In this document: piece by piece, positions 3,783 to 24,254 of the stretch
Position numbering within the stretch: position 1 is the first letter of the stretch
Layout of the letters: the number at the start of each line of letters is the position of its first letter
Source: Candidatus Saccharimonadota bacterium
GTDB lineage: Bacteria > Patescibacteriota > Microgenomatia > UBA1406 > GWC2-37-13
Direction: 5' to 3'
Assembly: GCA_016700135.1 (NCBI GenBank)
Contig: CP065004.1
Coordinates: 1,380,001-1,412,000 of the forward strand
DNA: 32,000 nucleotides
The notes under the pieces: model-generated
Databases searched by the model: none
What the model was told of the DNA's origin: nothing
What the model saw: only the letters and a program-made list of their open reading frames with translations
Made by a program: the position numbers and the translations under genes

Positions 3783-3875
3783 AATGCGGATTTTGAAACT
3801 TTTTCACGCTGCCGCCAGTTTCATACGTGGTGAACGAAATCTAACTCGGCTTGAAAAAGTTCAACAATTCGCATT
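3783..3875. other. 93-nt long imperfect hairpin (element F) between ilvD and ridA
   Basis: The arms AATGCGGATTTTGAAACTTTTTCA (3783-3806) and TGAAAAAGTTCAACAATTCGCATT (3852-3875) are complementary at 20 of 24 positions. The core contains a second small stem. On the minus strand the hairpin is followed by a U-rich run (TTTTTCATCTTTT). Confidence 0.5.
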
Positions 3876-3910: not shown

Positions 3911-5665
3911 TCAACTGGTAACTGCGCCTTTTGACGCACTGGAAACTAATTTTGCATACTTTGCCAATATTCCTCTCTTATATCTGGGTTCAGGTTTTTT
4001 CCAATTTTCCTTCCTCTTTTGCATCTCTTTTGCATCAACGAGAATATTAATCTGGCGTTTATCAACATCTATATCGATAATATCTCCTTCCATTACCATT
4101 GCAATCGGCCCCCCGTCAGCCGCTTCAGGCGCTATATGACCTACCATAATACCGTGCGTCCCTCCCGAGAACCGTCCGTCAGTAATCAATGCCACATCCT
4201 TTCCCATGCCCGCACCCATAAGGGCTGCTGACGGTGAGAGCATTTCTCTCATTCCCGGGCCGCCTTTCGGACCTTCATAACGAATGATAATCACATCTCC
4301 GTGTTTGATTTTTCCGTCAAGAATGGCATTCATAGCATCATCTTCACATTCAAAAACCCTGGCCGGTCCCTTGTGCTGCTTTATCATTTTCCCTGACAAT
4401 TTCATAACTGCCCCCTCTTCAGACATATTCCCTTTCATGATCGCCAGATGATGGCCCGGAGGTGCGAATGGCTTTTCAAGAGATGAAATAATATCCTGAT
4501 TTCGGGGACGTTCAGAGGCATTCTTCAGATTTTCCGCTACGGTTTTACCGGTAACTGTCAGACAATCTCCATGCAACAAACCTGCATCAAGAAGCATTTT
4601 CATCACCATCGGTATGCCCCCGATTTCATTAAGATGCTCCATCATATAATCACCGGACGGACTGAAGTTACCGATTAAGGGCACCTTTTTACCGATTTTT
4701 TCAAAATCATCAATCGAAAGCTCGACATCAGCTTCGTGTGCGAGAGCCAACAGATGAAGAACGGCGTTTGTAGATCCTCCCAATGCCTGTACTACCACAA
4801 TCGCATTCTCAAAAGCCTTTCGCGTCATAATATCACGTGCTCTAATACTTTTTTTCATCAGGTTGAATAATGCTTCCACTGTTTTTGCCACATCTTCCGC
4901 TTTCTTTTCAGATATACGTCCCATCCTGTTCATTGCCGGATGAGAAGCACTTCCCGGAACCGACATCCCCATTGCTTCAATGGCGCTGGCCATAGTATTT
5001 GCGGTATACATACCGCCACAAGCACCGGCACACGGACAGGATCTGGTCTCAATTTCATGAAACTCCTGTTCATTCATCTTTCCCGCAGAATATGCTCCGA
5101 CTGCCTCAAAAACACTGACAATATTTAAATCACGATCTATATATGTGCCCGGGAGAATTGTCCCTCCATACAACGTGATTCCGATAGAGTTATTGCGAGC
5201 CAATGGCATCAATGATGCCGGAATTGTTTTATCACAGCCGGAAAAAGCAATCGTACCGTCTGCAAAATATGCTTCTGACATCATCTCAATCGAATCCGCA
5301 ATCCATTCACGAGAGACAAGAGAATACTTCATACCCTCAGTCCCCATCGTCTCTCCGTCTGTGACAACAGGCGTTCCGAACATATACGGCTTACCGTCAC
5401 ATTTTGCAACTTCATCTTCAGCAATACGGGCAAGCTCGTCAATATGAGCATTACACGGACCCACATCCGTATACGGAGCGGCAATACAAATCAGCGGTTT
5501 TTCAAAATCATCAGTATCGTATCCGACGGCACGCATCATAGCACGAGCAGGAGCTCTCTTCACCCACGATTCTTCTCCCGGACGGCTCGTCAACTCCTCA
5601 CTTCTTCCTTTTAGTTCAGGTTGTTCATCGTGACAGCAGCAGCCGTCTCCACATGTTTTTGACAT
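3911..5665 (-). CDS. ilvD: Dihydroxy-acid dehydratase
   Basis: 584 aa with IlvD/Edd motifs [12 protein letters not shown] and [14 protein letters not shown]. The N-terminus carries an unusual Cys-rich ~20-aa extension. An alternative TTG start at 5593 is possible. Confidence 0.94.
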
Positions 5666-5692
5666 TTATTGTTTTAAAATTCTAATTAGCAA

Positions 5693-5784
5693 GAGCGCAG
5701 TAACCAAAATTTGCGCTGAGGTGGATGTTCGATCCGCCAGCTGGCGGAGAGTTCACCTCTAGCAAATTTTCGGTTACAAGCGAA
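5693..5784. repeat. Intercistronic nested-palindrome element, copy A (92 nt)
   Basis: GAGCGCAGTAACCAAAATTTGCGCTGAGGTGGATGTTCGATCCGCCAGCTGGCGGAGAGTTCACCTCTAGCAAATTTTCGGTTACAAGCGAA. It differs from copy B at 4 positions and lies between the ilvA stop and the ilvD start. Confidence 0.9.
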
Positions 5785-5797
5785 ACTTTATTAAAAA

Positions 5798-7042
5798 CTA
5801 TACAAGATACTCATACAGCATATCCTGTTCAGTCAGCTTCCGGTACTTCAATTCGATCGCATCCATCCGTTCCATCAATGGTTTCAAATCAGATTTATCT
5901 TTTAATTCAATCCCGACAAGTGCCGGAGCCTTTTCCTTATTCGTCTTCTTGATATACTCGAATCGGACAATATCGTCATTGGGACCGAGTGACTCATCAA
6001 GCATCCGTTTCAGCTGACCCGGCTTCTGAGCAAACTCGACAATAAAATAATGCTTTCTTCCCTGATACACCAGACTTTTTTCCATAATTTCCGGATAGCG
6101 CAAAATGTCGTTATTTCCTCCGCTCAACACACACACAACCGTTTTCCCTGCGATCTTTTCCGCAAGATAATCAAGTGCAGAGATTGAAAGCGCTCCTGCC
6201 GGCTCCGAGACAATCCCTTCATTCTGATACAGCTCAATCATTGTCGTACAGTCCTTTCCTTCGGGAACAAGCACGATATCATCAACATATTTTTTTGCGA
6301 TTTCAAAAGTAAGATTTCCGACCGTCCTCACAGCCGCTCCGTCTACAAACGTATCGATCGTATCAAGGGTCACAATCGTATTCTGCTTCATGGATTCAAA
6401 CATCCCGGGTGCACCTTCAGGTTCGACACCGACAATCCGGATATGTTGATTTTTCCCTTTCAAAAACGTCGAAACACCTGATATGAGTCCGCCGCCCCCG
6501 ATAGCGCAAAGCACGAAATCCACTTTTCCTTTGAGTTCTTCAAACAATTCTTTTCCCACCGTACCCTGACCTGCAATTGTCATCGGGTCGTTGAAAGGAT
6601 GGACATATGCAGCATTATTCTCTTTGGCAAATACCTGAGACGCAATACTTGCATCATCAAAAGTGGTCCCGACCAATTTGATATCGACATACCCGTCCCC
6701 GAATTGCTGGACTTTCTCAATTTTCTGATTCGGTGTGACGATCGGCATAAAAATGGTACCGTGCACCTTCAACGCATTACAACTATAAGCAACGCCCTGT
6801 GCATGATTTCCGGCACTGGCACAGACTACACCGTTTTCACGCTGTTTTGCAGTCATCGAAGCCATTTTATTATAAGCCCCCCGTATCTTAAAAGACCGAA
6901 CCTCCTGCAAATCTTCCCGCTTTATGTAGACGTTAGCTTTGTACTTCTTTGATAAGCGGGCTGAGTACTGCAAAGGCGTTTTCTGAGCAATCCCTTTCAG
7001 CCTCTTTGCCGCTTCTTCAATTTCTTTTATCGTGATTTTCAT
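5798..7042 (-). CDS. ilvA: Threonine ammonia-lyase (biosynthetic threonine dehydratase, short form)
   Basis: PLP-lysine motif SFKIRGAY, glycine loop GGGGLISG, and a C-terminal ACT-like regulatory domain. Start chosen at MKITIKEIEEA (7042), because the longer track ORF runs into repeat copy B. Confidence 0.92.
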   Translation of the reverse strand: MKITIKEIEEAAKRLKGIAQKTPLQYSARLSKKYKANVYIKREDLQEVRSFKIRGAYNKMASMTAKQRENGVVCASAGNHAQGVAYSCNALKVHGTIFMPIVTPNQKIEKVQQFGDGYVDIKLVGTTFDDASIASQVFAKENNAAYVHPFNDPMTIAGQGTVGKELFEELKGKVDFVLCAIGGGGLISGVSTFLKGKNQHIRIVGVEPEGAPGMFESMKQNTIVTLDTIDTFVDGAAVRTVGNLTFEIAKKYVDDIVLVPEGKDCTTMIELYQNEGIVSEPAGALSISALDYLAEKIAGKTVVCVLSGGNNDILRYPEIMEKSLVYQGRKHYFIVEFAQKPGQLKRMLDESLGPNDDIVRFEYIKKTNKEKAPALVGIELKDKSDLKPLMERMDAIELKYRKLTEQDMLYEYLV

Positions 7043-7060
7043 AATACTTTTTGGTGCAAT

Positions 7061-7152
7061 GAGCGCAGTAATCAAAATTTGTGCAGAGGTGGATGTTCGA
7101 TCCGCCAGCTGGCGGAGAGTTCACCTCTAACAAATTTTCGGTTACAAGCGAA
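7061..7152. repeat. Intercistronic nested-palindrome element, copy B (92 nt)
   Basis: GAGCGCAGTAATCAAAATTTGTGCAGAGGTGGATGTTCGATCCGCCAGCTGGCGGAGAGTTCACCTCTAACAAATTTTCGGTTACAAGCGAA, between the leuA stop and the ilvA start. Confidence 0.9.
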
Positions 7153-7171
7153 TCATAACCCACAAACAACT

Positions 7172-8683
7172 TTAAATTAATTTATTTAACCCATCAACAT
7201 ACGCCTGTACAGCAGCAACAACAATATCTGTATCAGAGCCGAACCCGTAATGCATCTTCTTCCCGTATTCAAGCTGTACGTTCACACGGCTAATATCATC
7301 CGACCCTTTTGTTACAGCCTGAATCAAAAATTCTTTCAAAACCGGAATTTTTTTCATTAGATCAGAATCTTTTATAATCTGATTGACGCAGTTGTATGAC
7401 GCATCCACCGGACCGTTCCCTGTCTTAGAGGCAATAAATTCATTGCCATTGATTTTCAATTTGACCGATGCCATCGGTTTCAACGGATACCCGCATACCA
7501 CCTCAACAAGATCAATTTGTATTTTCCTCTGTACGTCCCCCGCCCGACCCATCAGCATCTGCAGGTCTTCATCATTGACCTCTTTCTTGCTGTCGGCAAG
7601 CTCCAGAAACTTCGGATACAATGCATCCAATTGCTCCTTATTCAACGTAAATCCCAGCTCCTGCAAACGATGATTCAATGCAGCCCGACCCGATCTTGCT
7701 CCCAAAACAATCTGAGTTTGCTCCAATCCGACATCAGTCGGCTGCATAATCTCAAATGCCTGTTTGTTTTTGAGCATCCCGTCCTGATGAATACCCGAAG
7801 CATGAGCAAATGCATTTGCACCGACAATAGCTTTGTTTGCTTGAACCGGCATCTTCATCAGTCTTGAAACCAAACGGCTTGTCGGATATATCTTTTTGGT
7901 ATTGATGCCCATATCAAAATCCAATCCGTGATTCGTTTTGATTGCCATAATGACCTCCTCGAGCGCAGTGTTCCCCGCCCGTTCTCCGACACCGTTTATA
8001 GTCCCTTCCACCTGTCGAGCACCGTTCACGACGCCTGCCAAAGCGTTCGCAGTCGCCAGACCCAGATCATTGTGACAGTGCACGGCAATCGTGACTTTAT
8101 CAATATTTTTCACATTATCAACCAGATATTTGATCTTCTCCCCGAACTCCCAGGGCATACAATAGCCTGTCGTATCTGGAATATTGATGACGGTCGCCCC
8201 GGCTTCAATAACCTTCTCAACAAAATGTGCCAAAAACTCATTTTCAGTACGTCCTGCATCCATCGGTGAAAACTGCACATCCTCAACATATTTTTTAGCG
8301 TGTTTCACGGCATCGATGGCACGCTGCAGGATTTCTTCCCTTGTCGATTTGAAAACGTATTTAATGTGAATGTCTGAGCTTGAAATAAACGTATGAATCC
8401 GTTTTCGTTTTGCATACTTCAGAGATTCTGCGGCGCAATCAATATCTCCCTTAATCGCACGCGCCAAAGGAGAAATGACCGGTTTAGAAATTGCTTTTGT
8501 GATCTCTACAACCGAATCAAAATCACCTTTTGATGAAATCGGAAAACCCGGTTCAACAACATCGACACCCAATGATTCAAGAGCTTTTGCAACCTCAATT
8601 TTCTCAACAGTGTTCAATTGACACCCCGGAGCCTGTTCACCGTCTCTCAGAGTAGTATCAAAGATATATACTTTGTTTTTCAT
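7172..8683 (-). CDS. leuA: 2-isopropylmalate synthase
   Basis: Motifs FDTTLRDGEQ and HCHNDLGLATANALAG, plus a C-terminal LeuA-type regulatory domain. Start taken at MKNKVYIFDTT (8683), because the track ORF extension translates repeat copy C. Confidence 0.9.
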   Translation of the reverse strand: MKNKVYIFDTTLRDGEQAPGCQLNTVEKIEVAKALESLGVDVVEPGFPISSKGDFDSVVEITKAISKPVISPLARAIKGDIDCAAESLKYAKRKRIHTFISSSDIHIKYVFKSTREEILQRAIDAVKHAKKYVEDVQFSPMDAGRTENEFLAHFVEKVIEAGATVINIPDTTGYCMPWEFGEKIKYLVDNVKNIDKVTIAVHCHNDLGLATANALAGVVNGARQVEGTINGVGERAGNTALEEVIMAIKTNHGLDFDMGINTKKIYPTSRLVSRLMKMPVQANKAIVGANAFAHASGIHQDGMLKNKQAFEIMQPTDVGLEQTQIVLGARSGRAALNHRLQELGFTLNKEQLDALYPKFLELADSKKEVNDEDLQMLMGRAGDVQRKIQIDLVEVVCGYPLKPMASVKLKINGNEFIASKTGNGPVDASYNCVNQIIKDSDLMKKIPVLKEFLIQAVTKGSDDISRVNVQLEYGKKMHYGFGSDTDIVVAAVQAYVDGLNKLI

Positions 8684-8706
8684 ATGTAATGTATGTAATT
8701 TAAATT

Positions 8707-8798
8707 GAGCGCAGTAATCAAAATTTGTGCAGAGGTGGATGTTCGATCCGCCAGCTGGCGGAGAGTTCACCTCTAACAAATTTTCGGTTACTAGCGAA
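8707..8798. repeat. Intercistronic nested-palindrome element, copy C (92 nt)
   Basis: Identical to copy B except for one base (TACTAG versus TACAAG). It lies between ilvN and leuA. Confidence 0.9.
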
Positions 8799-8818
8799 AT
8801 ATTTATAATAAATCTTGG

Positions 8819-8857
8819 ATCCCGGATCGGGGTCCGGGATGACAGCATTCGGCTGTC
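8819..8857 (-). other. Two tandem stem-loops immediately after or overlapping the ilvN stop codon
   Basis: ATCCCGGA-tcgggg-TCCGGGAT (8-bp stem, 8819-8840), then GACAGC-attcg-GCTGTC (6-bp stem, 8841-8857). There is no clear U-tract on the minus strand. Confidence 0.5.
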
Positions 8858-9335
8858 ACTTAAATACTGCAATCCTTCCCGACCTCACAATCTCCTTAAT
8901 GCCAAACGGTTGCAGCAACTCGTCCAGTTTATCGATTTCCTTCTCGTCACCCGTAATCTCAGCTACTAAATAATTCTTATCAATGTGAATTATTCTTCCT
9001 TTTGACAATCGTACCAGTTGTTCGATTTCTTCACGCTTTTCTTTTGTCTTTGCCGTCACCTTGATAAGGGCAATTTCACGCGGCACCAGCTCATCGTCAG
9101 TACTCTCAATGACTTTTGTCATCTCAATGATCCGATACAATTGCTTTCCGATCTTTTCAACAAGATCACGTTCCGCATCGACCACAATCGTAAATCGGGA
9201 CATTCCTTTATGTTCAATCTCCGAAACCGTCAGACTCTCAATATTTATTTTGCGGCGAAGCAGCAAATCAGCAATCCGATACAGGACGCCCGGTTTGTTT
9301 TCTGCTATTGCCGTTATGGTATACCGTTGTTTCAT
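8856..9335 (-). CDS. ilvN: Acetolactate synthase small (regulatory) subunit
   Basis: 159 aa with an N-terminal ACT domain (ENKPGVLYRIADLLLRRKINIESLTV). It sits 9 nt downstream of ilvB. Confidence 0.9.
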   Translation of the reverse strand: MKQRYTITAIAENKPGVLYRIADLLLRRKINIESLTVSEIEHKGMSRFTIVVDAERDLVEKIGKQLYRIIEMTKVIESTDDELVPREIALIKVTAKTKEKREEIEQLVRLSKGRIIHIDKNYLVAEITGDEKEIDKLDELLQPFGIKEIVRSGRIAVFK

Positions 9336-11038: not shown

Positions 11039-11977
11039 TTACACTTTGATTTTGGTACACCAACTTTCATATTTTTTCTCGTTGCCGCGTACGACTCTGA
11101 AAAAGAGGTCTTGGAGCGTCCCGGAAACCGTTCCTCTTTTTCCGTTGCCGATCCGTCTTTTATCGATATGCGAAATCCATGCTATTTGAGCGCCCGTCCC
11201 ACAGAAGAATGCTTCATCCGCAACATACAGTTCACTGCGGTCAATCGTACGTTCTTCCACCGGGATACCCTGATCTTTCGCAAGCTGAAGCACTGATCTT
11301 CTCGTGATTCCCTCTAAAATATCATCACTTTTCGGCGGAGTGATCAGTACTCCGTCACGCACCATGCAGAAATTCATGGCTGATCCTTCTGCGACATGCC
11401 CCGATTCATTCAGAAATATCGCTTCGTCATAACCGTTCAAGGTTGCTTCATGTTTTGCCATTGCTGAGTTGATGTATCCGCCGGCTATTTTGGCTCGTGA
11501 AGGGATGGCATTGTCAGAAATCCGTCTCCAGGAAGATACACAAACGCTGATTCCTTTATCAGTCGGCAAATAATCACCCAACGGAATCATATACAAAGCA
11601 AAACTGAACTCATGATCACGATCGAGATTGGGTGATAAATTCGTGCTTCCGGCATAGGCAAATGGGCGGAAGTAGGTATCGGACTGCGGATTATTTTTTT
11701 CGGTAAGATCGGTCGTAATCTTCACAAGTTCCTCTCTGTTGTACTGAAGATCGACTCCGATGATTTTGAGAGAATTAAGAAATCGCTTGTAGTGATCGTC
11801 AATTCTGAAAAGAGAAATAAATCCTTTTTCCTTGTTGTAATAACCCCGTATTCCACCGAAAACAGCTGTCCCGTACTGCAGAGCATTCGTCATAACTGAT
11901 ACTTTTGCATCTTCCGTTTTGACGACTTTGCCCTCAAAAAATGCATAAGGATGTGAGGTAGTTTGAAGATGGGACAT
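11039..11977 (-). CDS. ilvE: Branched-chain amino acid aminotransferase (fold type IV)
   Basis: BCAT-like N-terminus (FFEGKVV...YGTAVFGGIRGY) and GITR motif. Start at MSHLQTT (11977), because the longer track ORF runs through the attenuator terminator. Confidence 0.9.
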   Translation of the reverse strand: MSHLQTTSHPYAFFEGKVVKTEDAKVSVMTNALQYGTAVFGGIRGYYNKEKGFISLFRIDDHYKRFLNSLKIIGVDLQYNREELVKITTDLTEKNNPQSDTYFRPFAYAGSTNLSPNLDRDHEFSFALYMIPLGDYLPTDKGISVCVSSWRRISDNAIPSRAKIAGGYINSAMAKHEATLNGYDEAIFLNESGHVAEGSAMNFCMVRDGVLITPPKSDDILEGITRRSVLQLAKDQGIPVEERTIDRSELYVADEAFFCGTGAQIAWISHIDKRRIGNGKRGTVSGTLQDLFFRVVRGNEKKYESWCTKIKV

Positions 11978-12041
11978 ATATTTGGAAAAAAAATAATAAT
12001 TTCCTTTGGGCTCATTTTTACTTACATAAGCTTTCAAGGCT

Positions 12042-12068
12042 AAAAAAAAACCCGCCTGTCTGGCGGGT
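12042..12068 (-). terminator. Intrinsic terminator of the ilv leader (attenuator)
   Basis: Minus strand: ACCCGCC-agaca-GGCGGGT followed by a run of T residues. It lies about 65 nt upstream of the ilvE ATG and 30 nt downstream of the leader-peptide stop. Confidence 0.8.
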
Positions 12069-12097
12069 GCAAATGTCATTCGAATGCCCTCCCGCCG

Positions 12098-12148
12098 TTA
12101 GCGGTTAATAAGGAGGACAATAAGTGCAAATGACATCGGATTTTTCAT
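12098..12148 (-). CDS. ilv operon leader peptide, 16 aa: MKNPMSFALIVLLINR
   Basis: ATG AAA AAT CCG ATG TCA TTT GCA CTT ATT GTC CTC CTT ATT AAC CGC TAA. Six of seven consecutive codons are Leu/Ile/Val. It sits between the predicted promoter and the terminator, and alternative pairings are available. Confidence 0.7.
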   Translation of the reverse strand: MKNPMSFALIVLLINR

Positions 12149-12160
12149 ACGATAAAAAGT

Positions 12161-12189
12161 ATTATAGAAAACAAATCTTCATAATGCAA
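12161..12189 (-). promoter_or_regulatory. Sigma70-like promoter of the ilv/leu operon
   Basis: Minus strand: TTGCAT (12189-12184), 17-nt spacer, TATAAT (12166-12161). The -35 box begins 9 nt after the aroC stop codon. Confidence 0.6.
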
Positions 12190-12198
12190 ACACAAGCA

Positions 12199-13318: not shown

Positions 13319-13412
13319 TGAACGAAGTAACCAAAATTTGTGAATGAAGTGGATGTTTGAGCGGACAAGCTTAGGGCGAGTTCACTTCTGAACAAATTTT
13401 CGGTTACGAGTG
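13319..13412. repeat. Intercistronic nested-palindrome element, diverged copy D (~94 nt)
   Basis: GAACGAAGTAACCAAAATTTGTGAATGAAGTGGATGTTTGAGCGGACAAGCTTAGGGCGAGTTCACTTCTGAACAAATTTTCGGTTACGAGTGA. The arms are conserved and the inner stem is changed compensatorily (GAAGTG/CACTTC versus GAGGTG/CACCTC). Confidence 0.8.
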
Positions 13413-13433
13413 ATTTAAAAAATAGTAATAAAT

Positions 13434-15746: not shown

Positions 15747-15835
15747 GACCGCAAAATAATCAAAATTTGTCTTATCATAACTGCCATCCATTATAGATCT
15801 GGCTTTATGAAAAGCAAATTTTCGGTTACAAGCGC
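15747..15835. repeat. Intercistronic element, copy E (arms conserved, different core)
   Basis: GACCGCAAAATAATCAAAATTTG ... CAAATTTTCGGTTACAAGCGC. The core is replaced by CTTATCATAA...TTATGAAAAG and GCCA...TGGC stems. The 3' arm overlaps the last codons and the stop of aroA. Confidence 0.65.
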
Positions 15836-17109
15836 TTTTGATATTCCAATCCAATTGCTCTCAATTTCTCCCAATACTCAGGAAACGTTTTTTTCACAAC
15901 TTCAGGATCGTTAATCTTCATCCCTTCAATTTTTGCTCCCGCCATCGCAAAACTCATCGCCATACGGTGATCGTGATAGGTGTCAATAACCGCCGCATGA
16001 GGTTTTCCTCCGAACACGTGCAAAGAATCTTCATCAGGTGACTCCGTGCGTATACCCATTTTAGCAAGTTCCTGTTGTACCGCCTTAACCCGTTCCGTTT
16101 CCTTCACCCTGAGGGAACGTACTCCCGTCATTTTTGTCACTCCTTCAGCAAACGCCGCAAGAACCGCAAGAGTCTGCGCCTGATCGGGACAGCTTTCCAT
16201 ATCAACTTCGAGTGCCCGGACACCGGTCCCTTTTATCGTTATCCTATCCTCGTCGTACACAACTTCATTTCCCATTTTTTGAATAATTTCCAGAAATTTT
16301 TTATCACCCTGTGTAGAATCCTGACGTAGATTCTTCAATGTGATTGTCATGCCCGTAAGAGCCGCAATACCCGCAAAATAACCCGCCGCAGAGTAATCTC
16401 CTTCAACGATATATTCACTCATTCTGTACGATCCGGCAGGAACTTCATACCATTTATAATCATTGTTCTGAACGGAAACTCCCCATTCCCGCATCATCTC
16501 GAGTGTGATATCTATATATGATTTTGAGATCTGGTTTCCCTCAACTTCGATTGTCATACCGCCGATTACGGGAGCTATCAAAAGTAACGCTGTAAAATAT
16601 TGACTGCTCACATCCCCATGCATTCGAACGAATCTTTTAGTGACCGTTGACTGATGAACGGCAATAGGAGGAAACCCATCCTGATTTTCGTATACTATCT
16701 CGATCCCCATCTGACGCAATCCGTCAACCAGATCTTTTATCGGGCGCTCATTCAGACGACCGATTCCGAAAATCTTTTTTACACCCGGGACAATCGCTGC
16801 CAGTGCGGTTATAAATCTTATAGTTGTTCCTGACAATCTCGCATTCAGTTCATATCCGCTTTTCTTTACATCAGCAATACTTCCGCGGACAATGACCTCA
16901 TGATCACGCTTTTCTATCTTGATGCCAAGCGTTTGCAGACACTCAATCATTGCTTCAGTATCATCACTCCACAACGGATATTTGATCGTCACCGCGCCCC
17001 GCGTCAATGCCGCCATAACGAGTGCCCGATTGGTCACACTTTTTGATCCCGGTATGACAACGGTTGCCTCCACCGGTTTTTGAATTGGTTTTAATTGTAT
17101 TTGTTTCAT
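15826..17109 (-). CDS. aroA: 3-phosphoshikimate 1-carboxyvinyltransferase (EPSP synthase)
   Basis: 427 aa with the N-terminal motif PGSKSVTNRAL and EPSPS similarity throughout. Confidence 0.95.
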   Translation of the reverse strand: MKQIQLKPIQKPVEATVVIPGSKSVTNRALVMAALTRGAVTIKYPLWSDDTEAMIECLQTLGIKIEKRDHEVIVRGSIADVKKSGYELNARLSGTTIRFITALAAIVPGVKKIFGIGRLNERPIKDLVDGLRQMGIEIVYENQDGFPPIAVHQSTVTKRFVRMHGDVSSQYFTALLLIAPVIGGMTIEVEGNQISKSYIDITLEMMREWGVSVQNNDYKWYEVPAGSYRMSEYIVEGDYSAAGYFAGIAALTGMTITLKNLRQDSTQGDKKFLEIIQKMGNEVVYDEDRITIKGTGVRALEVDMESCPDQAQTLAVLAAFAEGVTKMTGVRSLRVKETERVKAVQQELAKMGIRTESPDEDSLHVFGGKPHAAVIDTYHDHRMAMSFAMAGAKIEGMKINDPEVVKKTFPEYWEKLRAIGLEYQKRL

Positions 17110-17132
17110 ATGGAAATGAATAACAGTATGAA

Positions 17133-17219
17133 AATTTTTGAGAGTTATCTTTGAGCCGATCAGATCGAGATCTTGTTGATATATGCCTACTCCATAGGCG
17201 AACTAGCTCGCAAAAAATT
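17133..17219. other. ~87-nt structured intercistronic element (G) between aroB and aroA
   Basis: The outer arms AATTTTTGAGAG and CTCGCAAAAAATT can pair. They enclose two hairpins: ATCAGATC-GA-GATCTTGTTGAT and GCCTA-ctcca-TAGGC. The arms weakly resemble those of copies A-E. Confidence 0.35.
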
Positions 17220-17247
17220 ACATAGTATTCGACAAATATCAAATAAT

Positions 17248-18336
17248 CTAACCCACAATATACTCAATTGCCTTTTTCACAAACTTATCATCAACACTCA
17301 CATTAAATTCGCCCTGCCCGATCCCGCTGAGGAGCGTCCACTTGATATGCCCCTTTTCAACTTTTTTGTCCGTTAACATTGCTCTCAACACATCATCTAC
17401 GACCAGACCTTCATATCTTACCGGCAACCCTACGCGCTTTATCCCGCTTTCAATTTTGTTAAACTCTTTTTCTGTAATCATCCCGATAAGCTGGCAAATG
17501 TAACTCTCAGCTATCATGCCAATTGAAACAGCCTCACCATGAAATAACGGATTTTGTGACTTCATACTATGTGACTCAATGACATGCCCGACCGTATGGC
17601 CGAAGTTCAGCAGTTTTCGTAATCTGTGCTCTGTCTCATCCTGACGGACTATCTCTGACTTAATATGGACAGACTCTGCAACAATATCTATTAATTCCTT
17701 ATCAGTCATCTCAAGAGGACTTTTCTTAACCGCTTCTTCAAAGTAGTTACTATCCTCGATAAGTCCATGCTTAATTACTTCTGCATACCCCTGAATCAAC
17801 ACGCGGTGAGGCAGTGTTTTTAACGTTTCAACGTCACAGACAACAAGTTCAGGCTGCGTGAATGAACCAATGTAATTTTTTAACGTACCAAGATTCACAC
17901 CTGTTTTTCCGCCGACACTGGCATCAACCATTCCTTCCAAAGTCGTTGAAATATTTATAAACGATACGCCGCGCAAATAACCTGAAGCTGCATAGCCTCC
18001 CAGATCAGTAACCACACCACCGCCAAGATTGACAATCAATGCTTTCCTGTCAATCATATTCTTTGCCATATCTTTCCATATTTCAACTACCGTCCCGATT
18101 TGCTTGCTGGATTCTCCGGCTGGAAACACAAATGAATACATATTTGCAATCCGTTGAGAAAAGATTTTAATAACAGGCTTCAGATAATGTCTTGAAACAT
18201 TTGAGTCAGTAATAATATATATTGATGAATACCCTGCTAGATCAATCAAATCGGGGATCAGTTCAATAATATTCTCACCGACACATACTTGATATTTCCG
18301 TGCTTGTTTTTGTATACCAACTTCAATTGTTTTCAT
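17248..18336 (-). CDS. aroB: 3-dehydroquinate synthase
   Basis: 362 aa with GGGVVTDLGGYAA and metal-binding LNFGHTVGHVIE motifs. Confidence 0.95.
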   Translation of the reverse strand: MKTIEVGIQKQARKYQVCVGENIIELIPDLIDLAGYSSIYIITDSNVSRHYLKPVIKIFSQRIANMYSFVFPAGESSKQIGTVVEIWKDMAKNMIDRKALIVNLGGGVVTDLGGYAASGYLRGVSFINISTTLEGMVDASVGGKTGVNLGTLKNYIGSFTQPELVVCDVETLKTLPHRVLIQGYAEVIKHGLIEDSNYFEEAVKKSPLEMTDKELIDIVAESVHIKSEIVRQDETEHRLRKLLNFGHTVGHVIESHSMKSQNPLFHGEAVSIGMIAESYICQLIGMITEKEFNKIESGIKRVGLPVRYEGLVVDDVLRAMLTDKKVEKGHIKWTLLSGIGQGEFNVSVDDKFVKKAIEYIVG

Positions 18337-18365
18337 GGTTTGTATTCAACTATTAATCTTAGTAT

Positions 18366-19184
18366 TTATTCCGAATATGTCTGACCTTTTTCATATATCC
18401 CGACCATTCTGTATGAAAGCGTTTCCTTTTCCAATAACACTTTGAACGTTTCTGCTGATCCCTCAGGGATCTCCACATCAATCCAAAAAAGATATTCCCA
18501 GTTCGAACCGGGAACGGGACGGGATTCGATTTTGGACATATTACCTTTGGCATCTGCTATCGCCTGCAGTACCTTGACCAGGCTTCCCGGTTCATGCTTT
18601 ACCTTGAAAATAACCGTAATTTTATTCTGTATCTTACCGAGGCTAAAAAGGCTATTTGATACAAATACCCATCGGGTCATATTGTGTGAGGTATTTCCAA
18701 TATTTTCCTTAATAATTCGGAGATTTGTATCGGCAAGTGAGCCTCGACCTGCTATTGCGGCTTTTGTATTATCCTGCAGTGTATCCACTTCCCGTACTGC
18801 AGATGCGGTACTCGGTGTCTCATGGGTTATAAGACCGTGTTTTTCGATAAATGAAGAACATTGTACAATCGCCTGAGGATAAGAAAATATCTCTCTGACA
18901 TCTGTAATATCCGAATCGCTGGTCCCAATGAGATGGAGCTGGATATCCATACATGCTTCACCGACAATGTAAAGATCAGTATGAAAGACGAGATCTATAT
19001 TCTCATGAACGGAACTGCTTATGGAATTTTCTATACCCAGAAGTCCCATACTCTTTTTGTCGTTCATAACAGCATCAGAAATGTGGACAAAGGTGGGCAT
19101 CGGTATCAGCTCATCATCGGGACAGACTTTTTGCAAAAGCGCATAACTGTATGATCCTTTCGGACCTAAATAATATATTTTCAT
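18366..19184 (-). CDS. pheA: Prephenate dehydratase (PDT plus ACT domain)
   Basis: 272 aa with a PDT domain and a C-terminal ACT domain carrying the ESRP motif (SKIESRPVPG). Its start overlaps the tyrA stop. Confidence 0.9.
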   Translation of the reverse strand: MKIYYLGPKGSYSYALLQKVCPDDELIPMPTFVHISDAVMNDKKSMGLLGIENSISSSVHENIDLVFHTDLYIVGEACMDIQLHLIGTSDSDITDVREIFSYPQAIVQCSSFIEKHGLITHETPSTASAVREVDTLQDNTKAAIAGRGSLADTNLRIIKENIGNTSHNMTRWVFVSNSLFSLGKIQNKITVIFKVKHEPGSLVKVLQAIADAKGNMSKIESRPVPGSNWEYLFWIDVEIPEGSAETFKVLLEKETLSYRMVGIYEKGQTYSE

Positions 19185-19894
19185 GACTGTTGTAATAATA
19201 AACTAATTGACTGATATGCTGAATTAATTTTTTCAAACTGCTTTTTGCAAAAAGGATTAAAGGTATACATTTCCTTTAATAGTTTTGTATCGTCGGTCTG
19301 TACCATTTCGACAAAATCAAAGAGTGATTCGACTGATCGTGTGTCAATCGGGCTTCTTGATAGTTTGATTTCTTTAACTAAAGCCGCAATGACATGTGCG
19401 GTAAAATGAAATTCTGCTGCATACCCGTCATGTTCTTCGGCAGACATTTCGATAATATCAAGACCTGTCTTTCGGAAAGAGTCATAAACTTCAGAGTAAA
19501 TATGACCTTTCACTCGAACCTTTTCCATCACGATCCGTAATCCGTTTAGATTGTTCCCGAGTTTTGCAACTGTACCCGGACCGAACATCGGATGTGAAGC
19601 AACAATTTGAATATGAGGCGGCAATTCACTCTTCATGATTGAAACCGGATAAGATTTAACGGAACAAACATCCATTACAGTCGCCCCTTCCTTCAGCAAC
19701 GGTGCAATAGTCCCGATAACTTCCGCAAAATGATTTATTGGAACTGCAGGAATAACCAAATCACATTGATGAACATCGGATATAGTATCTCTTGCAATAG
19801 AAATTATCTCAGCTTGCGGAAACACAGAAGGGAGTATCTCCAGAAGGAGAGTCCCGAATTTTCCTTGACCGATGATACCGACGTTTCGAATCAT
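19181..19894 (-). CDS. tyrA: Prephenate/arogenate dehydrogenase (short form)
   Basis: N-terminal dinucleotide fold IIGQGKFG and catalytic-region motif SHPMFGPG. Only 237 aa. Confidence 0.85.
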   Translation of the reverse strand: MIRNVGIIGQGKFGTLLLEILPSVFPQAEIISIARDTISDVHQCDLVIPAVPINHFAEVIGTIAPLLKEGATVMDVCSVKSYPVSIMKSELPPHIQIVASHPMFGPGTVAKLGNNLNGLRIVMEKVRVKGHIYSEVYDSFRKTGLDIIEMSAEEHDGYAAEFHFTAHVIAALVKEIKLSRSPIDTRSVESLFDFVEMVQTDDTKLLKEMYTFNPFCKKQFEKINSAYQSISLLLQQS

Positions 19895-20157
19895 TATTTC
19901 GATCGTTCAACTTCCAATGCCCAATTATGAAGGACGTCCCATATGGATAAGACTACGGACTCCGGGATAAATAGTTCCACCGCTATCTCTTTTCTCTTTT
20001 CAATCATCTCCCCGAAACGGGTTTCATCTTTGATGGGAAGACTACTGACCTTTTTACGTTCACCAATTGCTTCCACAACATCCCGTCTCTTTGAGAGCAG
20101 GATCAGGATGTCATGATCAATCTCATCGATTTTTTTCCGTAAATCATTAATTTCCAT
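19894..20157 (-). CDS. aroQ: Chorismate mutase, AroQ class (monofunctional, 87 aa)
   Basis: LRKKIDEIDHDILILLSKRRDVV is a typical AroQ helix-1 pattern. TAATG overlap with tyrA. Confidence 0.85.
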   Translation of the reverse strand: MEINDLRKKIDEIDHDILILLSKRRDVVEAIGERKKVSSLPIKDETRFGEMIEKRKEIAVELFIPESVVLSIWDVLHNWALEVERSK

Positions 20158-20161
20158 TTGA

Positions 20162-21199
20162 TTAGTGTGACGAATACTTATAATTGGGCTTCTCTTTCAT
20201 TTTTGTCCTCTTTTTTGATTTTTGCTTTCCTTCCTCAGGCGCGACAAGATCTCTGAATGATGACAGAACAGATACCAATTCCCGCAACTCCTGAATGGTG
20301 ATGTGCTGTTCGGTATCAGTTGTAGATGTTCCCGTCTCGATCAATGCTCCGTCATACAGAAACTCATCCTGGGCTGTTTTCATGCGCATCGCTTCAACAA
20401 CTGCTCCAACAATATGTGAGCGGAGTTTCGGGCCGTATGAATGACTGGGATCAAAGTACAATTTTGCTCCCGTTTCTTTTTTGACGCGTCGGGCAATATT
20501 GTGGACTACCGCACTGCGGAAATCACCTTTCCCCGGCACATCAACTCCCCGGTGGATAAGAATAATGTCCCCGTCGAGATCCTGGATATATCGCGTCAAT
20601 CCAGACCATGTCTTTTCCATAGTGGTTTTCCCTGTGTAATTTTCATCGTCTGCCGAATGAAGATGATCTCCGATCCACTTACCGTTTTTCAGTCCGATAT
20701 GCCAGCCGTTTCGTTTTGCAAACAATGCCGTTTGCTCGATATGCCAACCCAGCTGATTGACTGCAGGATTCCAGGGAATAAATTTCCCTTTACCGACTTT
20801 CCCTTCAAAAGACGGAAGCTGAATGATCGGATTCATTACCTCGGTCGCTATTATCATTCCTGTCTCATTCACAATTTCTTCAGCGATGTAGGCACTGGGC
20901 AAAATTTCAAGATCTTTAATTCCGCCTCCGTTCATAATAATCTCAACGTTTTTTCTGTACGCGTCATAATCCATACCCATACCGTTTCCGGATGAATCCA
21001 GCTCGGTCCGTGATTTCAAACCTACAATTCGTGTCCCTCCGATTGCACGATGTTTCTTACCTTCGCGATTTGTAATTTCAATTTCTGAGATCTCCCTGAT
21101 CTCCTTAATATTATTGTCATCAACAGAACAGGGTCCTGCGATGATTATTGCTGATCGGTTTTTCATATTTTTTTTAAATGATAATGAGTTTTGGACCAT
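20162..21199 (-). CDS. Divergent DAHP synthase-like protein (type I-beta DAHPS/KDO8PS fold), putative 3-deoxy-7-phosphoheptulonate synthase
   Basis: IIAGPCSVDD, VGLKSRTE, ATEVMNP, HRGVD and FDPSHSYG echo the I-beta DAHPS core motifs (GPCS[VI]E, KPRTS, xTEV, ERG, DPSH), but with long insertions and a Lys-rich tail. It is the first gene of the aro operon. An alternative start at 21166 (MKNRSAIIIAGPC) is plausible. Confidence 0.6.
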   Translation of the reverse strand: MVQNSLSFKKNMKNRSAIIIAGPCSVDDNNIKEIREISEIEITNREGKKHRAIGGTRIVGLKSRTELDSSGNGMGMDYDAYRKNVEIIMNGGGIKDLEILPSAYIAEEIVNETGMIIATEVMNPIIQLPSFEGKVGKGKFIPWNPAVNQLGWHIEQTALFAKRNGWHIGLKNGKWIGDHLHSADDENYTGKTTMEKTWSGLTRYIQDLDGDIILIHRGVDVPGKGDFRSAVVHNIARRVKKETGAKLYFDPSHSYGPKLRSHIVGAVVEAMRMKTAQDEFLYDGALIETGTSTTDTEQHITIQELRELVSVLSSFRDLVAPEEGKQKSKKRTKMKEKPNYKYSSH

Positions 21200-21200
21200 T

Positions 21201-21225
21201 AAAAAACCCCGCCTTGCGGGCGGGG
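21201..21225 (-). terminator. Intrinsic terminator of the aro leader (attenuator)
   Basis: Minus strand: CCCCGCC-cgcaa-GGCGGGG followed by TTTTTT. The T-run ends 1 nt before the ATG at 21199. Confidence 0.8.
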
Positions 21226-21241
21226 TGGTGATTGTTATGTT

Positions 21242-21322
21242 TTAAGCACAACTTCCCACGCCGCCCGAGGCGGTAAAGTAAAAGTAAAAATAAAAGCTGT
21301 TGTGGGAAGCTTTTTGTATCAT
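21242..21322 (-). CDS. aro operon leader peptide, 26 aa: MIQKASHNSFYFYFYFTASGGVGSCA
   Basis: ATG ATA CAA AAA GCT TCC CAC AAC AGC TTT TAT TTT TAC TTT TAC TTT ACC GCC TCG GGC GGC GTG GGA AGT TGT GCT TAA. Seven consecutive alternating Phe/Tyr codons lie just upstream of the 1:2 / 2:3 / 3:4 pairing segments. Confidence 0.75.
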   Translation of the reverse strand: MIQKASHNSFYFYFYFTASGGVGSCA

Positions 21323-21329
21323 AAATTCA

Positions 21330-21357
21330 ATTGTAACAGAGAAACCGGCGCTGTCAA
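21330..21357 (-). promoter_or_regulatory. Sigma70-like promoter of the aro operon (extended -10)
   Basis: Minus strand: TTGACA (21357-21352), 16-nt spacer ending in TGT, TACAAT (21335-21330). The -35 box starts 1 nt after the upstream gene's stop. The leader ATG is 7 nt downstream of the -10. Confidence 0.7.
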
Positions 21358-21358
21358 C

Positions 21359-22717
21359 TTACAAAAGCAGCATCACGCCGATCCCGAATGCGATCATTCC
21401 GACTCCGGCCATCATCATGGGAATAATACTCATACCCGAAACAGGCGGTGTCGGAACCCCTGTCAGCGTACCGCTTATAATCGGTGTCGGAGAAGCCAGT
21501 ATTCCGGACGGTGTTGGAGATCTCACTGTCGTCGGAGTGGGAGTGGCAGTTGAGACAATAACTGTCGGTGCTGTGGAGGGAGTGATCGATCCTGACGGGG
21601 TTGCCTCATCTGATTCGCCCAATACCCGCTCACCGCTTTTTATCAACGTAAACTCACGTTCTAGCTGTACGATATCCCCTTTTGCGTCTTCCGTTTGAAC
21701 GGTCAATGTGTACTTTCCGGGTTTAATACTCGTTTTTACCGGCACATTCCATTCACCTTTTTCATCCACGATAACTCTTGATGAAAATTCCGGTTTTGAA
21801 TCTATCGTCACCTCAGCTGCCTTACCGGGAATACCGTATCCTTTGATAAGAGGCGCTACACCGGGAATGACGGCTCCCTGTTTCGGAAAACGAATGTCTA
21901 CGATATCACGCCTGACAGGGACTTCCGATTTCTTATTCGTATTCTGTACGGCCAGCACATCGGTTTCTGCGATAAAAGAGTAATTATTTCCCAAAGTGAT
22001 CGGCTGGGGAATGGGTCTGCTCCGATTAATAGTGCTTCGTACCATGGATCTGTTCTCATCATCAAACAACTGAATAGTAATCAATGCATCGTCAGTAACC
22101 GGTACGGAGCTACGGGTTTGTTTATTGGCCAAATACTGCAAGGGAATAAGCCATTCCCCGGTATTCCCGGTCATGGTCATCAGAGGATATGCATTACCGA
22201 CAATAAGCATTGCATAAGCCGATTTTGCAGGCTGACCGTTTGTTTGGATAACTTTGCCGTAAATCGGGGACAGGGAGGTCATCGCTGCGGATTCTTCCAA
22301 CGTCATTGATTCAAATGCACCACCGTCTTCATGCGAAATGAGTTCATTATTGCTCACGATTTTATAGTAGTATACTTTGTCCGGCTGCAGATTCTTAAGG
22401 AGCGCATAGTGATATTTTCTCTTTGTTTTCTCACTTTTGATATCTCTCTCGTCAAGCGCAATAAGATCAAGAGAAGAATCGTTCTCGCCGTACATGATCC
22501 ATCCTTCATCGGGTTCATCAGTCTCCCAGAAAACTCCTATTTGACGGGGAGAAACATTTACGACCTCATGTTCCTTAAGCGTTCTTTTTGATGCTCGGGT
22601 CGGTGAAGAATCCTGCGAAAGCAAAAAAATAACCGTGGAGACAACCACAAAAAGCGCCGCAAAAGCGAGATATTTTGTAAATCTGAAATGGGACTGAGTA
22701 TATAATTCTGAATACAT
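21359..22717 (-). CDS. Membrane-anchored surface protein with an FN3-like N-terminal domain, a Pro/Thr/Ser-rich linker and a C-terminal TM helix
   Basis: N-terminal TM (YLAFAALFVVVSTVIFLL). FN3 / purple-acid-phosphatase-N-like segment (VSPRQIGVFWETDEPDEGWIMYG...YYYKI). PTS-rich tract (TPSTAPTVIVSTATPTPTTVRSPTPSG...). C-terminal hydrophobic anchor (IIPMMMAGVGMIAFGIGVMLLL). Confidence 0.6.
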   Translation of the reverse strand: MYSELYTQSHFRFTKYLAFAALFVVVSTVIFLLSQDSSPTRASKRTLKEHEVVNVSPRQIGVFWETDEPDEGWIMYGENDSSLDLIALDERDIKSEKTKRKYHYALLKNLQPDKVYYYKIVSNNELISHEDGGAFESMTLEESAAMTSLSPIYGKVIQTNGQPAKSAYAMLIVGNAYPLMTMTGNTGEWLIPLQYLANKQTRSSVPVTDDALITIQLFDDENRSMVRSTINRSRPIPQPITLGNNYSFIAETDVLAVQNTNKKSEVPVRRDIVDIRFPKQGAVIPGVAPLIKGYGIPGKAAEVTIDSKPEFSSRVIVDEKGEWNVPVKTSIKPGKYTLTVQTEDAKGDIVQLEREFTLIKSGERVLGESDEATPSGSITPSTAPTVIVSTATPTPTTVRSPTPSGILASPTPIISGTLTGVPTPPVSGMSIIPMMMAGVGMIAFGIGVMLLL

Positions 22718-22719
22718 AG

Positions 22720-22902
22720 TTAAGGCGTTTTCTTTTCCAGTACATCAAGGATGTCCGTATTAATAGTATACTCTACCGTTGCTGACTGAATTTCTTCATT
22801 TGTAGGAGTATCCTGACTAATAGCACGGACTTCCACAATAACCCATGCAATGATAGTCAAAAATATGATTACCGCTATGACTAATAAATCACGTTGACTC
22901 AT
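22720..22902 (-). CDS. Small single-pass membrane protein (60 aa)
   Basis: TM helix LLVIAVIIFLTIIAWVIV. ATGA overlap with the upstream PilO-like gene, and 2 nt from the downstream gene. Confidence 0.5.
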   Translation of the reverse strand: MSQRDLLVIAVIIFLTIIAWVIVEVRAISQDTPTNEEIQSATVEYTINTDILDVLEKKTP

Positions 22903-23462
22903 AAGAAATACGTTTTTATTGTTAATGTAATCTTGGTCGAGCCTTCCGATTCGCTTGATATTTCGACTGATTCAAACATCTTCAGCCTGCGTTGTTTCAG
23001 TATCGCCGTTATAAAAGTGTTCAGATCTGCAGTCGATCCCTGCGAACTCAGAAGTATCTGAAACGTCTGCAACTCACCGGTTCCTCTATCATCAGAAAAC
23101 TCAACGCTCTCAACAGTCATTTCAGAAACAAGGAGTCCGGAAGCCGATGCTGTCCCTCTCACATCTTCTATCGCCTTCGCAAGCCCCGGAGAAGAAGGGA
23201 TCGCTTCATCCAACAATGTCAGTTTATCCCGATAATTCTCCATGACTGACTGATAGTTTACAATCTGCAAAATTACATTCTCCGCTTCTTTATTTTTCAA
23301 ATCAAGGTCCTTTAGTTCTTTTTGCAAATTAAATGCTGTCAGGATATTCGGTCTGATTGCAAAAATTAAAAAGATAGAAAAAACCAAAAAAAAGAATATC
23401 GTAAAGCTATAATCCTGAATCTTTTTTTCATGCATTAATGCAACAAGTTTTTTGCGATCCAT
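22899..23462 (-). CDS. PilO-like type IV pilus assembly protein
   Basis: 187 aa with an N-terminal TM, a coiled-coil segment (LQKELKDLDLKNKEAENV), then an alpha/beta domain. It follows a PilN-like gene. The assignment rests on architecture and weak motif recall only. Confidence 0.5.
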   Translation of the reverse strand: MDRKKLVALMHEKKIQDYSFTIFFFLVFSIFLIFAIRPNILTAFNLQKELKDLDLKNKEAENVILQIVNYQSVMENYRDKLTLLDEAIPSSPGLAKAIEDVRGTASASGLLVSEMTVESVEFSDDRGTGELQTFQILLSSQGSTADLNTFITAILKQRRLKMFESVEISSESEGSTKITLTIKTYFL

Positions 23463-23464
23463 GG

Positions 23465-23989
23465 TTAGGGTATAAACTCAGCTAAATGCAAACTGAAACT
23501 AAATCTTTCTTCACCTTTTTCGATTGTTGATAAATCAATTACTTTGTATCTTTGATCTGCCTGAAGTGCATCGTACATAGCTTTTATCGGCTCAACCGTT
23601 GCGGATGATCCGTCAATATCCACAGCATCGGCTCCCATAACAAAATTTTCGATACGGATTTCTGAGGAGATTTTTGACAATGTATAGGAGTATTTTGCCT
23701 GAAATACCTCCTGTTCATCAAGAACAGTCTGTACCTGCTTCATTTTGGTATCAATTTCCTGGATCCGACTGACAAGTTCACTTGTTGCCGAAACGATGGA
23801 TTGCTTTTGGTTGAGTTTATCTTTGAGATCTACAATTTCCTGATCAACTTTGAACCTAAAGAAGAACACGCAGATCGCTACGAACTGCGTTATGACTAAA
23901 ATATAGCGAAGATAGTGAAAGGCAAAGTAGATGATTTTTTCTGATACATTCTTCTCTTTTTCCGGAAACAGGTTAATGAGGTATTTCAT
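23465..23989 (-). CDS. PilN-like type IV pilus assembly protein
   Basis: N-terminal INLFPEK (compare the PilN INLLP motif), one TM, then a coiled coil. Its start overlaps the rpsT stop (ATGA). Confidence 0.55.
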   Translation of the reverse strand: MKYLINLFPEKEKNVSEKIIYFAFHYLRYILVITQFVAICVFFFRFKVDQEIVDLKDKLNQKQSIVSATSELVSRIQEIDTKMKQVQTVLDEQEVFQAKYSYTLSKISSEIRIENFVMGADAVDIDGSSATVEPIKAMYDALQADQRYKVIDLSTIEKGEERFSFSLHLAEFIP

Positions 23990-24237: not shown

Positions 24238-24245
24238 AGTTTATA

Positions 24246-24254
24246 TCACCTCCT
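24246..24254 (-). promoter_or_regulatory. Canonical Shine-Dalgarno site of rpsT
   Basis: Minus strand: AGGAGGTGA followed by an 8-nt spacer (tataaact) and the ATG. It is the only strong SD I could find upstream of any gene in the window. Confidence 0.75.

Follow-up and report, generated by a model that had tools for sequence, protein, structure and literature searches.

Candidate REPIN-like palindromic repeats in the ilv-leu and aro operon gaps of a Roizmanbacteria-like bacterium

This report concerns a family of palindromic repeats found between the genes of the ilv-leu and aro operons in a 32,000-nucleotide stretch of contig CP065004.1 (assembly GCA_016700135.1), hereafter the window. All genes of the window are encoded on the minus strand, in the order leuD-leuC-ilvC-ridA-ilvD-ilvA-leuA-ilvN-ilvB-ilvE, then aroC-aroD-aroE-aroK-aroA-aroB-pheA-tyrA, with more genes beyond. 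Given that the closest named homologues of its IlvA come from Candidatus Roizmanbacteria (72-77% identity), and that its glycyl-tRNA synthetase (GlyRS) is of the dimeric type, we take the organism to be an uncultured Roizmanbacteria-like bacterium of the candidate phyla radiation (CPR). An earlier note on this DNA, which had assigned the ilv/leu genes correctly, described three near-identical elements that punctuate the ilv/leu operon. We find that these elements belong to a larger family, which we are inclined to regard as new, as specific to this lineage of Roizmanbacteria-like CPR genomes and as similar in kind to the REP, REPIN and BIME palindromic repeats that lie between genes elsewhere.

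Repeat copies in the window and their fold

Searching the window with nhmmer profiles and a covariance model (CM) yielded five copies of the repeat and none further. Three are the 92-nt elements of the earlier note, whose coordinates and common orientation proved exact: copy A (5693-5784, CM score 94.4 bits) lies in the ilvA/ilvD gap, 13 nt past the ilvA stop codon and 27 nt ahead of the ilvD start; copy B (7061-7152, 94.3 bits) lies in the leuA/ilvA gap, 18 nt from the next start; and copy C (8707-8798) lies in the ilvN/leuA gap, 23 nt from the next start. All three are of the type we call type 1, and in the family alignment B and C differ at a single base (91/92 identical) and A and B at four, as had been reported. 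The count of three was nevertheless too low. In the window, the right-end 14-mer AAATTTTCGGTTAC is present five times versus 0.39 expected, which is well above chance and led to the recognition of two extra copies. Copy D (13320-13414, 98.2 bits), a diverged type-1 element, sits in the aroD/aroC gap, 11 nt ahead of the aroC start, and has its nearest match (92.7%) at an unrelated locus of a relative (L004; loci compared with the window are numbered in this way). Copy E (15749-15836, 39 bits), of type 2, sits in the aroA/aroK gap, 23 nt from the next start, and carries the family's 14-15-nt ends around an unrelated core. All five copies point the same way, their + strand, the one written here, being antisense to the mRNA of the operons, and, as previously noted, the elements are intergenic, lie inside polycistronic units and hold no reading frame.

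Copy E also touches the coding sequence beside it. The aroA stop codon (15826-15828) is inside the conserved end of this copy, being the TAA within GTAACC, while in L022 (about position 1220), a locus of the closest relative (metagenome-assembled genome, MAG, GCA_964504235.1, which also comprises loci L003 and L023), a variant end, GTAGCC, gives aroA a TAG stop, and the AroA C-termini differ. It follows that insertion of the element remodelled the 3' end of aroA.

In every copy, a core of 45-52 nt that can be exchanged is enclosed by inverted ends that are conserved, GTAAYCAAAATTTG ... CAAATTTTCGGTTAC, giving an element of about 88-95 bp. The two basal modules are inverted relative to each other with a fixed asymmetry, the left reading 5'-GC-GmA-GTAAY-C-AAAATTTG and the right CAAATTTT-C(bulge)G-GTTAC-rA-GC-3'; in copy B the left basal arm occupies 7068-7082, the right basal arm 7130-7145 and the apical palindrome, CCGCCAGCTGGCGG, 7102-7115. 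Cores are either of type 1 (..GAAGTGGATGTTCGAGC-n12-GGCGAGTTCACTTC..) or of type 2 (..TTTTCATAACTCGCCATCC..GGCTTTATGAAAA..), and the combination of identical ends with a variable core was seen in 17 type-1 and at least seven type-2 copies. The type-2 core and the reverse complement of the type-1 core have only the 9-mer AACTCGCCA in common, and since their scores sit around the 95th percentile of shuffles, kinship between the two cores is unproven.

Covariation was computed on the 17 type-1 copies. A single long imperfect hairpin, in which the arms pair continuously save for one bulged C, accounts for 92.5% of pair cells, versus 30-46% in slid controls, and nine pairs have changed on both sides, an observed score that was reached by 0 of 500 column shuffles. 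Compensatory variants occur even within the 'invariant' ends, namely AAAATGTA/TACATTTT (TGTA/TACA) and GAAATC/GATTTC. The outer stem and the AGAGGTG/CACCTCT stem proposed earlier are real and covary across the family. The GAT-GTTCG-ATC hairpin and the 14-nt palindrome, on the other hand, are present in this genome's copies and missing from the orthologous copies of the closest relative; because they are thus peculiar to this genome, the family consensus is one long hairpin with internal loops and not the three-way-junction shape that had been suggested. A REP-like self-palindromy of single arms (CCGAA..TTCGG, in one arm) was considered as well and dropped, as it is not kept across copies.

Comparison of the strands is suggestive of a better predicted fold of the + strand over its complement: the + strand is the more stable in 21 of 22 copies (mean difference -8.5 kcal/mol), its alifold energy is -26 versus -12 kcal/mol for the complement, and G.T wobble cells favour it 55 to 7. 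Both strands fold far better than shuffles (z -3.4 to -5.9), and the hairpins are stable either way round. GC skew is consistently negative on the + strand, a measure confounded with coding-strand bias. Wherever a member of the family lies within an operon it is antisense, and the only clear sense copy comes after a canonical terminator, which suggests either selection against the stronger fold in mRNAs or an insertion bias.

On the type-1 + strand (e.g., 7094-7122), the apical hairpin has an invariant GA on its 5' side and, past a bulge of 4 nt (GUUC), a second GA on its 3' side, which two copies replace by AA; this arrangement resembles a kink-turn (k-turn). The GA/GA motif is kept in the window's remodelled apex (GA-UCCGCCAGCUGGCGGA-GA) and is not found in type 2. 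One could imagine that the + strand, which is antisense to the operon, yields a structured RNA of its own, with the tandem G.A/A.G at its apex serving as a k-turn-like protein-binding motif. Such an RNA would fit the better fold of this strand and the near invariance of the apical GA...GA, whose sole change, G to A, falls at a position variable in known k-turns. Yet the bulge, at 4 nt and with a U.G closing pair, is atypical of k-turns, type-2 copies do without the motif, the flanks are not conserved and hold no conserved promoter or terminator beside the elements, and no Rfam family matches, so we consider this explanation very remote.

In agreement with the earlier note, Rfam gave no match at gathering thresholds over the window; a permissive search of 5500-9000 returned only chance-level matches (E of at least 0.33), among them mir-2807 (24.8 bits versus a threshold of 54), which we rejected as a chance long hairpin. 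ARAGORN found no tRNA genes or tRNA-like folds in the window. The elements are not terminators, as also claimed: a U-tract follows the hairpin on neither strand, and the promoter and terminator scan gave no site at any element, with counts equal to those of shuffles. The genome employs canonical U-tract terminators elsewhere (e.g., 12068-12050). Some copies have TTGACA, which resembles a -35 box, in their variable apex; we dropped this candidate, as no -10 accompanies it and the window copies do not have it.

Another explanation sets the function at the level of double-stranded DNA, with the palindromes acting as sites that a nucleoid protein, gyrase or similar would bind or use structurally, and A4T4-type tracts acting as bends. 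Some BIMEs of E. coli are reported to be sites of this kind, and the repeats do contain AAAATTT/AAATTTT tracts, form BIME-like mosaic clusters and strictly conserve, across genera, the sequence of the basal arms itself, beyond its pairing. However, the compensatory changes in the arms favour recognition of a folded single strand over that of a duplex, and we know of no protein partner; we consider a DNA-level function highly improbable.

Turnover and constraint at orthologous gene gaps

Between the window and its closest relative, 32% of 4-fold sites differ (234/724), and the neighbouring genes diverge from L022 by about 10% in nucleotide sequence. Against this background, copies A and B show 0/75 and 0/75 changes at non-apical positions relative to their L022 orthologues, while the spacers beside the orthologous copies A, B and E are unalignable; copy E and its L022 orthologue are about 93% identical (83/89 aligned columns). 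The one part of A and B that has changed is the apex, of which about 18 nt were replaced in the window lineage by one GC-rich palindrome. Copy C has this palindrome too, and, judging from the sequences, is probably a recent overwrite by B.

Other gaps, or slots, have changed occupant altogether. At ilvN/leuA the window has a type-1 element where L003/L022 and L018 both have type 2; at aroD/aroC it again has type 1, where L022 has type 2 with the compensatory ends GAAATC/GATTTC; and the ridA/ilvD slot is filled by an unrelated hairpin in the window, by type 2 alone in L015 and by a tandem of type 2 and type 1 in L023. Other hairpin sequences are found at three slots of L018, and two of them are copies of a further family, type X. 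In the window, L022 and L018, almost every gap of these operons has some long hairpin, of differing families. A second locus has three type-1 copies, and ahead of each is a type-Y hairpin of about 90 nt, the pairs forming composite units. In the relative with 80% identity at this locus, one shared slot contains a type-1 element that is inverted and differently offset, and the remaining two slots contain different hairpin families. Empty slots were also observed, namely the leuA/ilvA slot of L019-L021 (an 8-nt gap; 87% IlvA identity) and the aroA/aroK slot of L019/L021 (16 nt), although the flanks of occupied and empty slots are too diverged to draw exact insertion boundaries.

In the same relatives (L019-L021), small open reading frames (ORFs) of PF05635, the 23S rRNA intervening-sequence protein, occupy other operon gaps without the hairpin repeats. 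They lie at 11296-11658 in L019/L020/L021, at 8205-8444 in L020 and in the ilvN/leuA gap of L019 (8056-8480). The two ORFs of L019 that we examined (ilvA/ilvD and ilvN/leuA) are bracketed by inverted repeats of roughly 30 nt, resembling ORF-bearing stem-loop insertions.

Beyond these operons, an exact two-end pattern was scanned for across 185,579 GTDB species genomes and the JGI metagenomes, matching only three related MAGs, plus two chance matches, in the former and four contigs in the latter. A PLSDB plasmid BLAST and an IMG/VR viral-contig scan matched nothing. In at least four MAGs or metagenomes, copies adjoin unrelated genes, including those for 6PGD, RNR, GDP-mannose dehydratase, CoaBC, TIM (tpiA)/UvrD, a KamA-like radical-SAM enzyme, a LexA-like peptidase, MsrA/ClpB, DHODH and ferredoxin/POR. 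The element is therefore not specific to one pathway, which runs counter to the view that it is special to the ilv/leu operon. The family is found between co-directional, convergent and divergent genes, and its density is five copies in 32 kb in the window and three in 21 kb in L024. Of note, the MAGs of L003, L004, L005, L007-L010 and L012 carry the GTDB record title 'uncultured Gammaproteobacteria', a label that is probably wrong, since these MAGs share ~90% nucleotide identity with the window or bear its repeat family, and the window's IlvA groups with Roizmanbacteria.

Related genomes also contain at least three more hairpin-repeat families (X, Y and Z) that fill intergenic slots, located in L018 (575-700, 11250-11420 and 3024-3148), L024 (2742-2830, 7447-7536, 11203-11282 and 13402-13479), L025 (11046-11124 and 11270-11348) and L005 (1832-1906). 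Several have related termini (CTCG-ATACC / GGTATC and GTTACC / GGTAAC), and type Y (about 90 nt) forms fixed composites with type-1 elements. At L025 13328-13437 we observed a divergent relative of the family described here, with the same outermost module, GAGCGCAGTAAT...ATTACAAGCGAA, and other inner arms, ATACATTTG / CAAATGCTA; it scores 23 bits with the CM (E about 0.02).

Taken together, these comparisons demonstrate dispersal, turnover (presence or absence, core swap and orientation flip), local homogenisation and constraint. Slow decay was not seen: copies are either retained unchanged or replaced wholesale. Among the three roles that the earlier note had put forward, that of a co-transcribed miniature inverted-repeat transposable element (MITE) fares best, to the extent that dispersal and the gain, loss, swap and inversion at orthologous slots favour a MITE-like repeat; we found no target-site duplication and, in the window and beside copies at other loci, no transposase. 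In its classical sense, a MITE is a deletion derivative of a DDE insertion sequence that moves by cut and paste via its terminal inverted repeats. Such an origin would account for the terminal inverted repeats of about 20 nt, the small size, the intergenic location and the differences in presence and orientation among relatives, and the aroA stop codon supplied by one copy is a feature common among MITEs. We nonetheless find it distinctly improbable: the AGCG flanks covary as complementary base pairs (columns 3-93 and 4-92) and are not direct repeats, and since other direct repeats are not present either, a target-site duplication was rejected; neither a parent insertion sequence or longer element with the same ends nor a solo end occurs in 284 kb of related sequence; compensatory changes fall within the supposed terminal repeats; and the conserved bulge and wobble asymmetry are unexpected if these are recognised as double strands.

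The idea of integron-like sites, in which the elements would be attC-like recombination sites of an integron or a cluster of attC sites lacking integron integrases (CALIN) and the ilv, leu and aro genes their cassettes, is scarcely credible on grounds of structure and context. It is true that the elements are imperfect palindromes of 75-95 nt, variable in the centre, with AAC...GTT near their ends and one base bulged out, and that the strand antisense to the ORFs folds better. But it is the hairpins that change and not the genes, which are core-metabolism genes in conserved synteny in all relatives; convergent and divergent gene pairs have elements between them as well; 12 of 17 copies have AAT, not AAC, as their core triplet; R/L boxes and a central spacer left unpaired are missing, with a single bulged C only; and an integrase was not found in the window.

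The main rival to a REPIN-like family is that the hairpins are intercistronic RNA punctuation selected by the host, with dispersal secondary, serving as RNase III/E sites, as barriers to 3' exonucleases or as modulators of translation termination and re-initiation that balance expression between operon segments. REPs of E. coli that lie near stop codons reportedly influence translation, and the elements here are within 13-19 nt of stop codons. The presence of some long hairpin in almost every gap, the stability of both strands and, above all, the invariance of orthologous copies (75/75 non-apical positions) in the midst of diverged genes and unalignable spacers all speak for a role of this kind. 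However, the gaps of 8 and 16 nt in the same operons of relatives show that the hairpins are dispensable, the family is also found between convergent and divergent genes and after terminators, the mRNA bears the weaker-folding strand, spacing to the start codon varies from 11 to 37 nt, and a plain stability hairpin would allow compensatory change and would not require an invariant sequence. On balance, we hold host punctuation to be unlikely, if a serious contender. The repeats may have an effect on RNA processing or stability; their better-folding strand is antisense to the operon mRNA.

The leader attenuator and other features of the window

Control of the ilv operon appears to lie elsewhere. 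The aroC/ilvE spacer, upstream of ilvE, contains on the minus strand (12041-12190) what is, from its sequence features, a classical leader-peptide transcription attenuator: a promoter-like site, TTTGCA-18-TATAAT, at 12190-12161; a leader ORF of 16 codons at 12148-12098, MKNPMSFALIVLLINR, in which Ile, Leu and Val abound; overlapping alternative hairpins; and, at 12068-12050, the terminator ACCCGCC-AGACA-GGCGGGT, which is followed by U9. Compared by eye, the leader region is nearly identical to that of L022, as opposed to the divergence of about 10% in the neighbouring genes. Rfam did not detect the attenuator at 12041-12190. Its presence explains amino-acid control without the repeats, and the message for annotation is that the ilv-leu operon is regulated by a leader-peptide attenuator and not by the repeats.

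As for gene boundaries, the mechanical ORF of ilvE (11039-12079) starts at 12079, upstream of the leader terminator, and its true start is near 11977, because homologues are 312 aa long; leuA starts at 8683 (503 aa) and ilvA at 7042 (414 aa), rather than at upstream TTG codons. The unrelated long hairpin of the ridA/ilvD gap (3783-3875), with 27-nt arms that are 81% complementary, is single-copy in all sequence compared except contig L017, which matches the window's RidA and a 111-nt stretch with this hairpin exactly. Right after the ilvN stop (8799-8856) there are two small GC-rich hairpins, GTGACAGC..GCTGTCAT and CCCGGA..TCCGGG (mRNA strand), neither of which is in the relatives L022 and L018. 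The window's repeats are restricted to the stretch between the aroA/aroK gap and the ilvA/ilvD gap, and positions 16000-32000 (pheA/tyrA, S20, glyS, recO and cell-envelope genes) are free of any of these repeats.

A REPIN-like reading and its relation to known systems

If the elements are REPIN-like, the + strand, antisense to the genes, would be the strand whose fold is selected. By analogy with REPINs, the folded single + strand would be recognised by a trans-acting enzyme that copies or replaces elements between slots, and short-tract gene conversion via the identical ends may account for the remainder. The location of the copies within the ilv-leu and aro operons implies that they are transcribed together with the genes, the mRNA receiving the strand that folds less well, and the mRNA would then contain predicted hairpins of -17 to -39 kcal/mol, 13-19 nt past a stop and 11-27 nt ahead of the next start. 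These would not be amino-acid-responsive switches, and would probably act only as passive punctuation of the mRNA, whether as an exonuclease barrier, an RNase III substrate or a modest influence on translation termination.

Several observations weigh against a REPIN-like family. A cognate enzyme was not found, there being no transposase or recombinase in the window or beside the elements at other loci (a PHROGs scan for transposases of 60 further neighbouring ORFs was uninformative), and we saw neither a target-site duplication nor a read-level sign of excision or insertion. Copy number is modest, with seven exact matches in the best-sampled MAG of the pattern scan and about 30 CM matches in the element orientation across 222 kb of the sequence compared, mutually overlapping loci included. 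The strand asymmetry leans on a few inherited wobble columns and, counted by columns, amounts to 8 versus 5. The hallmark GTAG of REPs is represented here by GTAA(C/T), with GTAG in only two copies. Finally, copy-specific variants are unchanged across the 32% synonymous divergence, which fits purifying selection by the host, and hence a cellular function, at least as well as selection at the level of the element.

A further, rather improbable option is an undescribed CPR system of strand-specific folded DNA or RNA modules, in which an enzyme would recognise the asymmetric base, apical cores would be exchanged like cassettes, and the host, using the copies to punctuate its long biosynthetic operons, would hold those retained under tight purifying selection. 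The 0-in-150 substitutions set against the 32% synonymous divergence, the all-antisense orientation in operons and the k-turn-like GA/GA are compatible with such a system, for which the minimal regulatory machinery of the CPR phyla would provide the context.

CPR genomes are about 1 Mb in size and are thought to be poor in repetitive DNA. REP/REPIN repeats are well studied in Proteobacteria and, as far as our literature search showed, undescribed in CPR, the search on CPR palindromic repeats and on PF05635 having found nothing relevant. What the present comparisons add is that, in operons of amino-acid biosynthesis, hairpin repeats from several families contend for common intergenic slots, with retained copies far more conserved than synonymous sites. 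Should a cognate enzyme exist, REPIN-like, vertically inherited replicators would be extended to CPR; should the host need the hairpins, they would offer a simple, testable model of operon punctuation.

Among known systems, the PF05635 insertions of the rRNA type share the intergenic slots of the repeats (L019-L021) and are likewise stem-loop insertions co-transcribed in an operon, yet the window elements have no ORF and their arm sequences are unrelated, so that any link is positional only. With attC sites, the repeats have in common an imperfect palindrome defined by structure, a variable centre, one or more extrahelical bases and a strand-specific fold antisense to the adjacent ORFs; they differ in having no R/L box layout or unpaired central spacer and no integrase, and in that the genes between them are core genes in synteny. 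The ERIC elements of Enterobacteria/Yersinia and the Correia/NEMIS elements of Neisseria are likewise imperfect palindromes between operon genes, MITE-like and roughly 100-150 bp long. They form hairpins in the mRNA, their effects depend on orientation, and orthologous sites may have or lack them; RNase III cleaves the Correia hairpins. Unlike the window elements, with which they have no sequence relationship, these families have TA target duplications, and Correia elements also carry IHF sites and promoters, whereas no target-site duplication, IHF-like site or promoter was found here.

The REPINs and REP-BIMEs of Pseudomonas and Enterobacteria are mobilised by RAYT Y1 transposases. In those systems a single-copy RAYT (a Y1 HUH enzyme) would be bracketed by repeats; no transposase is among the ORFs adjacent to the elements here. 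The two groups are set apart by the lack of any sequence similarity, by a host that is a CPR bacterium and not a proteobacterium, by single arms that are not convincingly self-palindromic and by a copy number of tens so far, not hundreds. Nevertheless, and contrary to the earlier view that the elements could not be placed near REP/BIME, their architecture fits the published definition of a REPIN, i.e., invariant inverted ends around a spacer that is less conserved but matters through its length and its potential to form a hairpin, with frequent compensatory changes (PMC3116915). Like REPINs, they combine two conserved inverted modules and a less conserved spacer with a predicted hairpin in single-stranded DNA or mRNA, and show compensatory changes (PMC3116915); and like REPINs and BIMEs, they are extragenic and dispersed, are often found inside operons, form mosaic clusters with other palindromic units and persist over long times as sequence populations.

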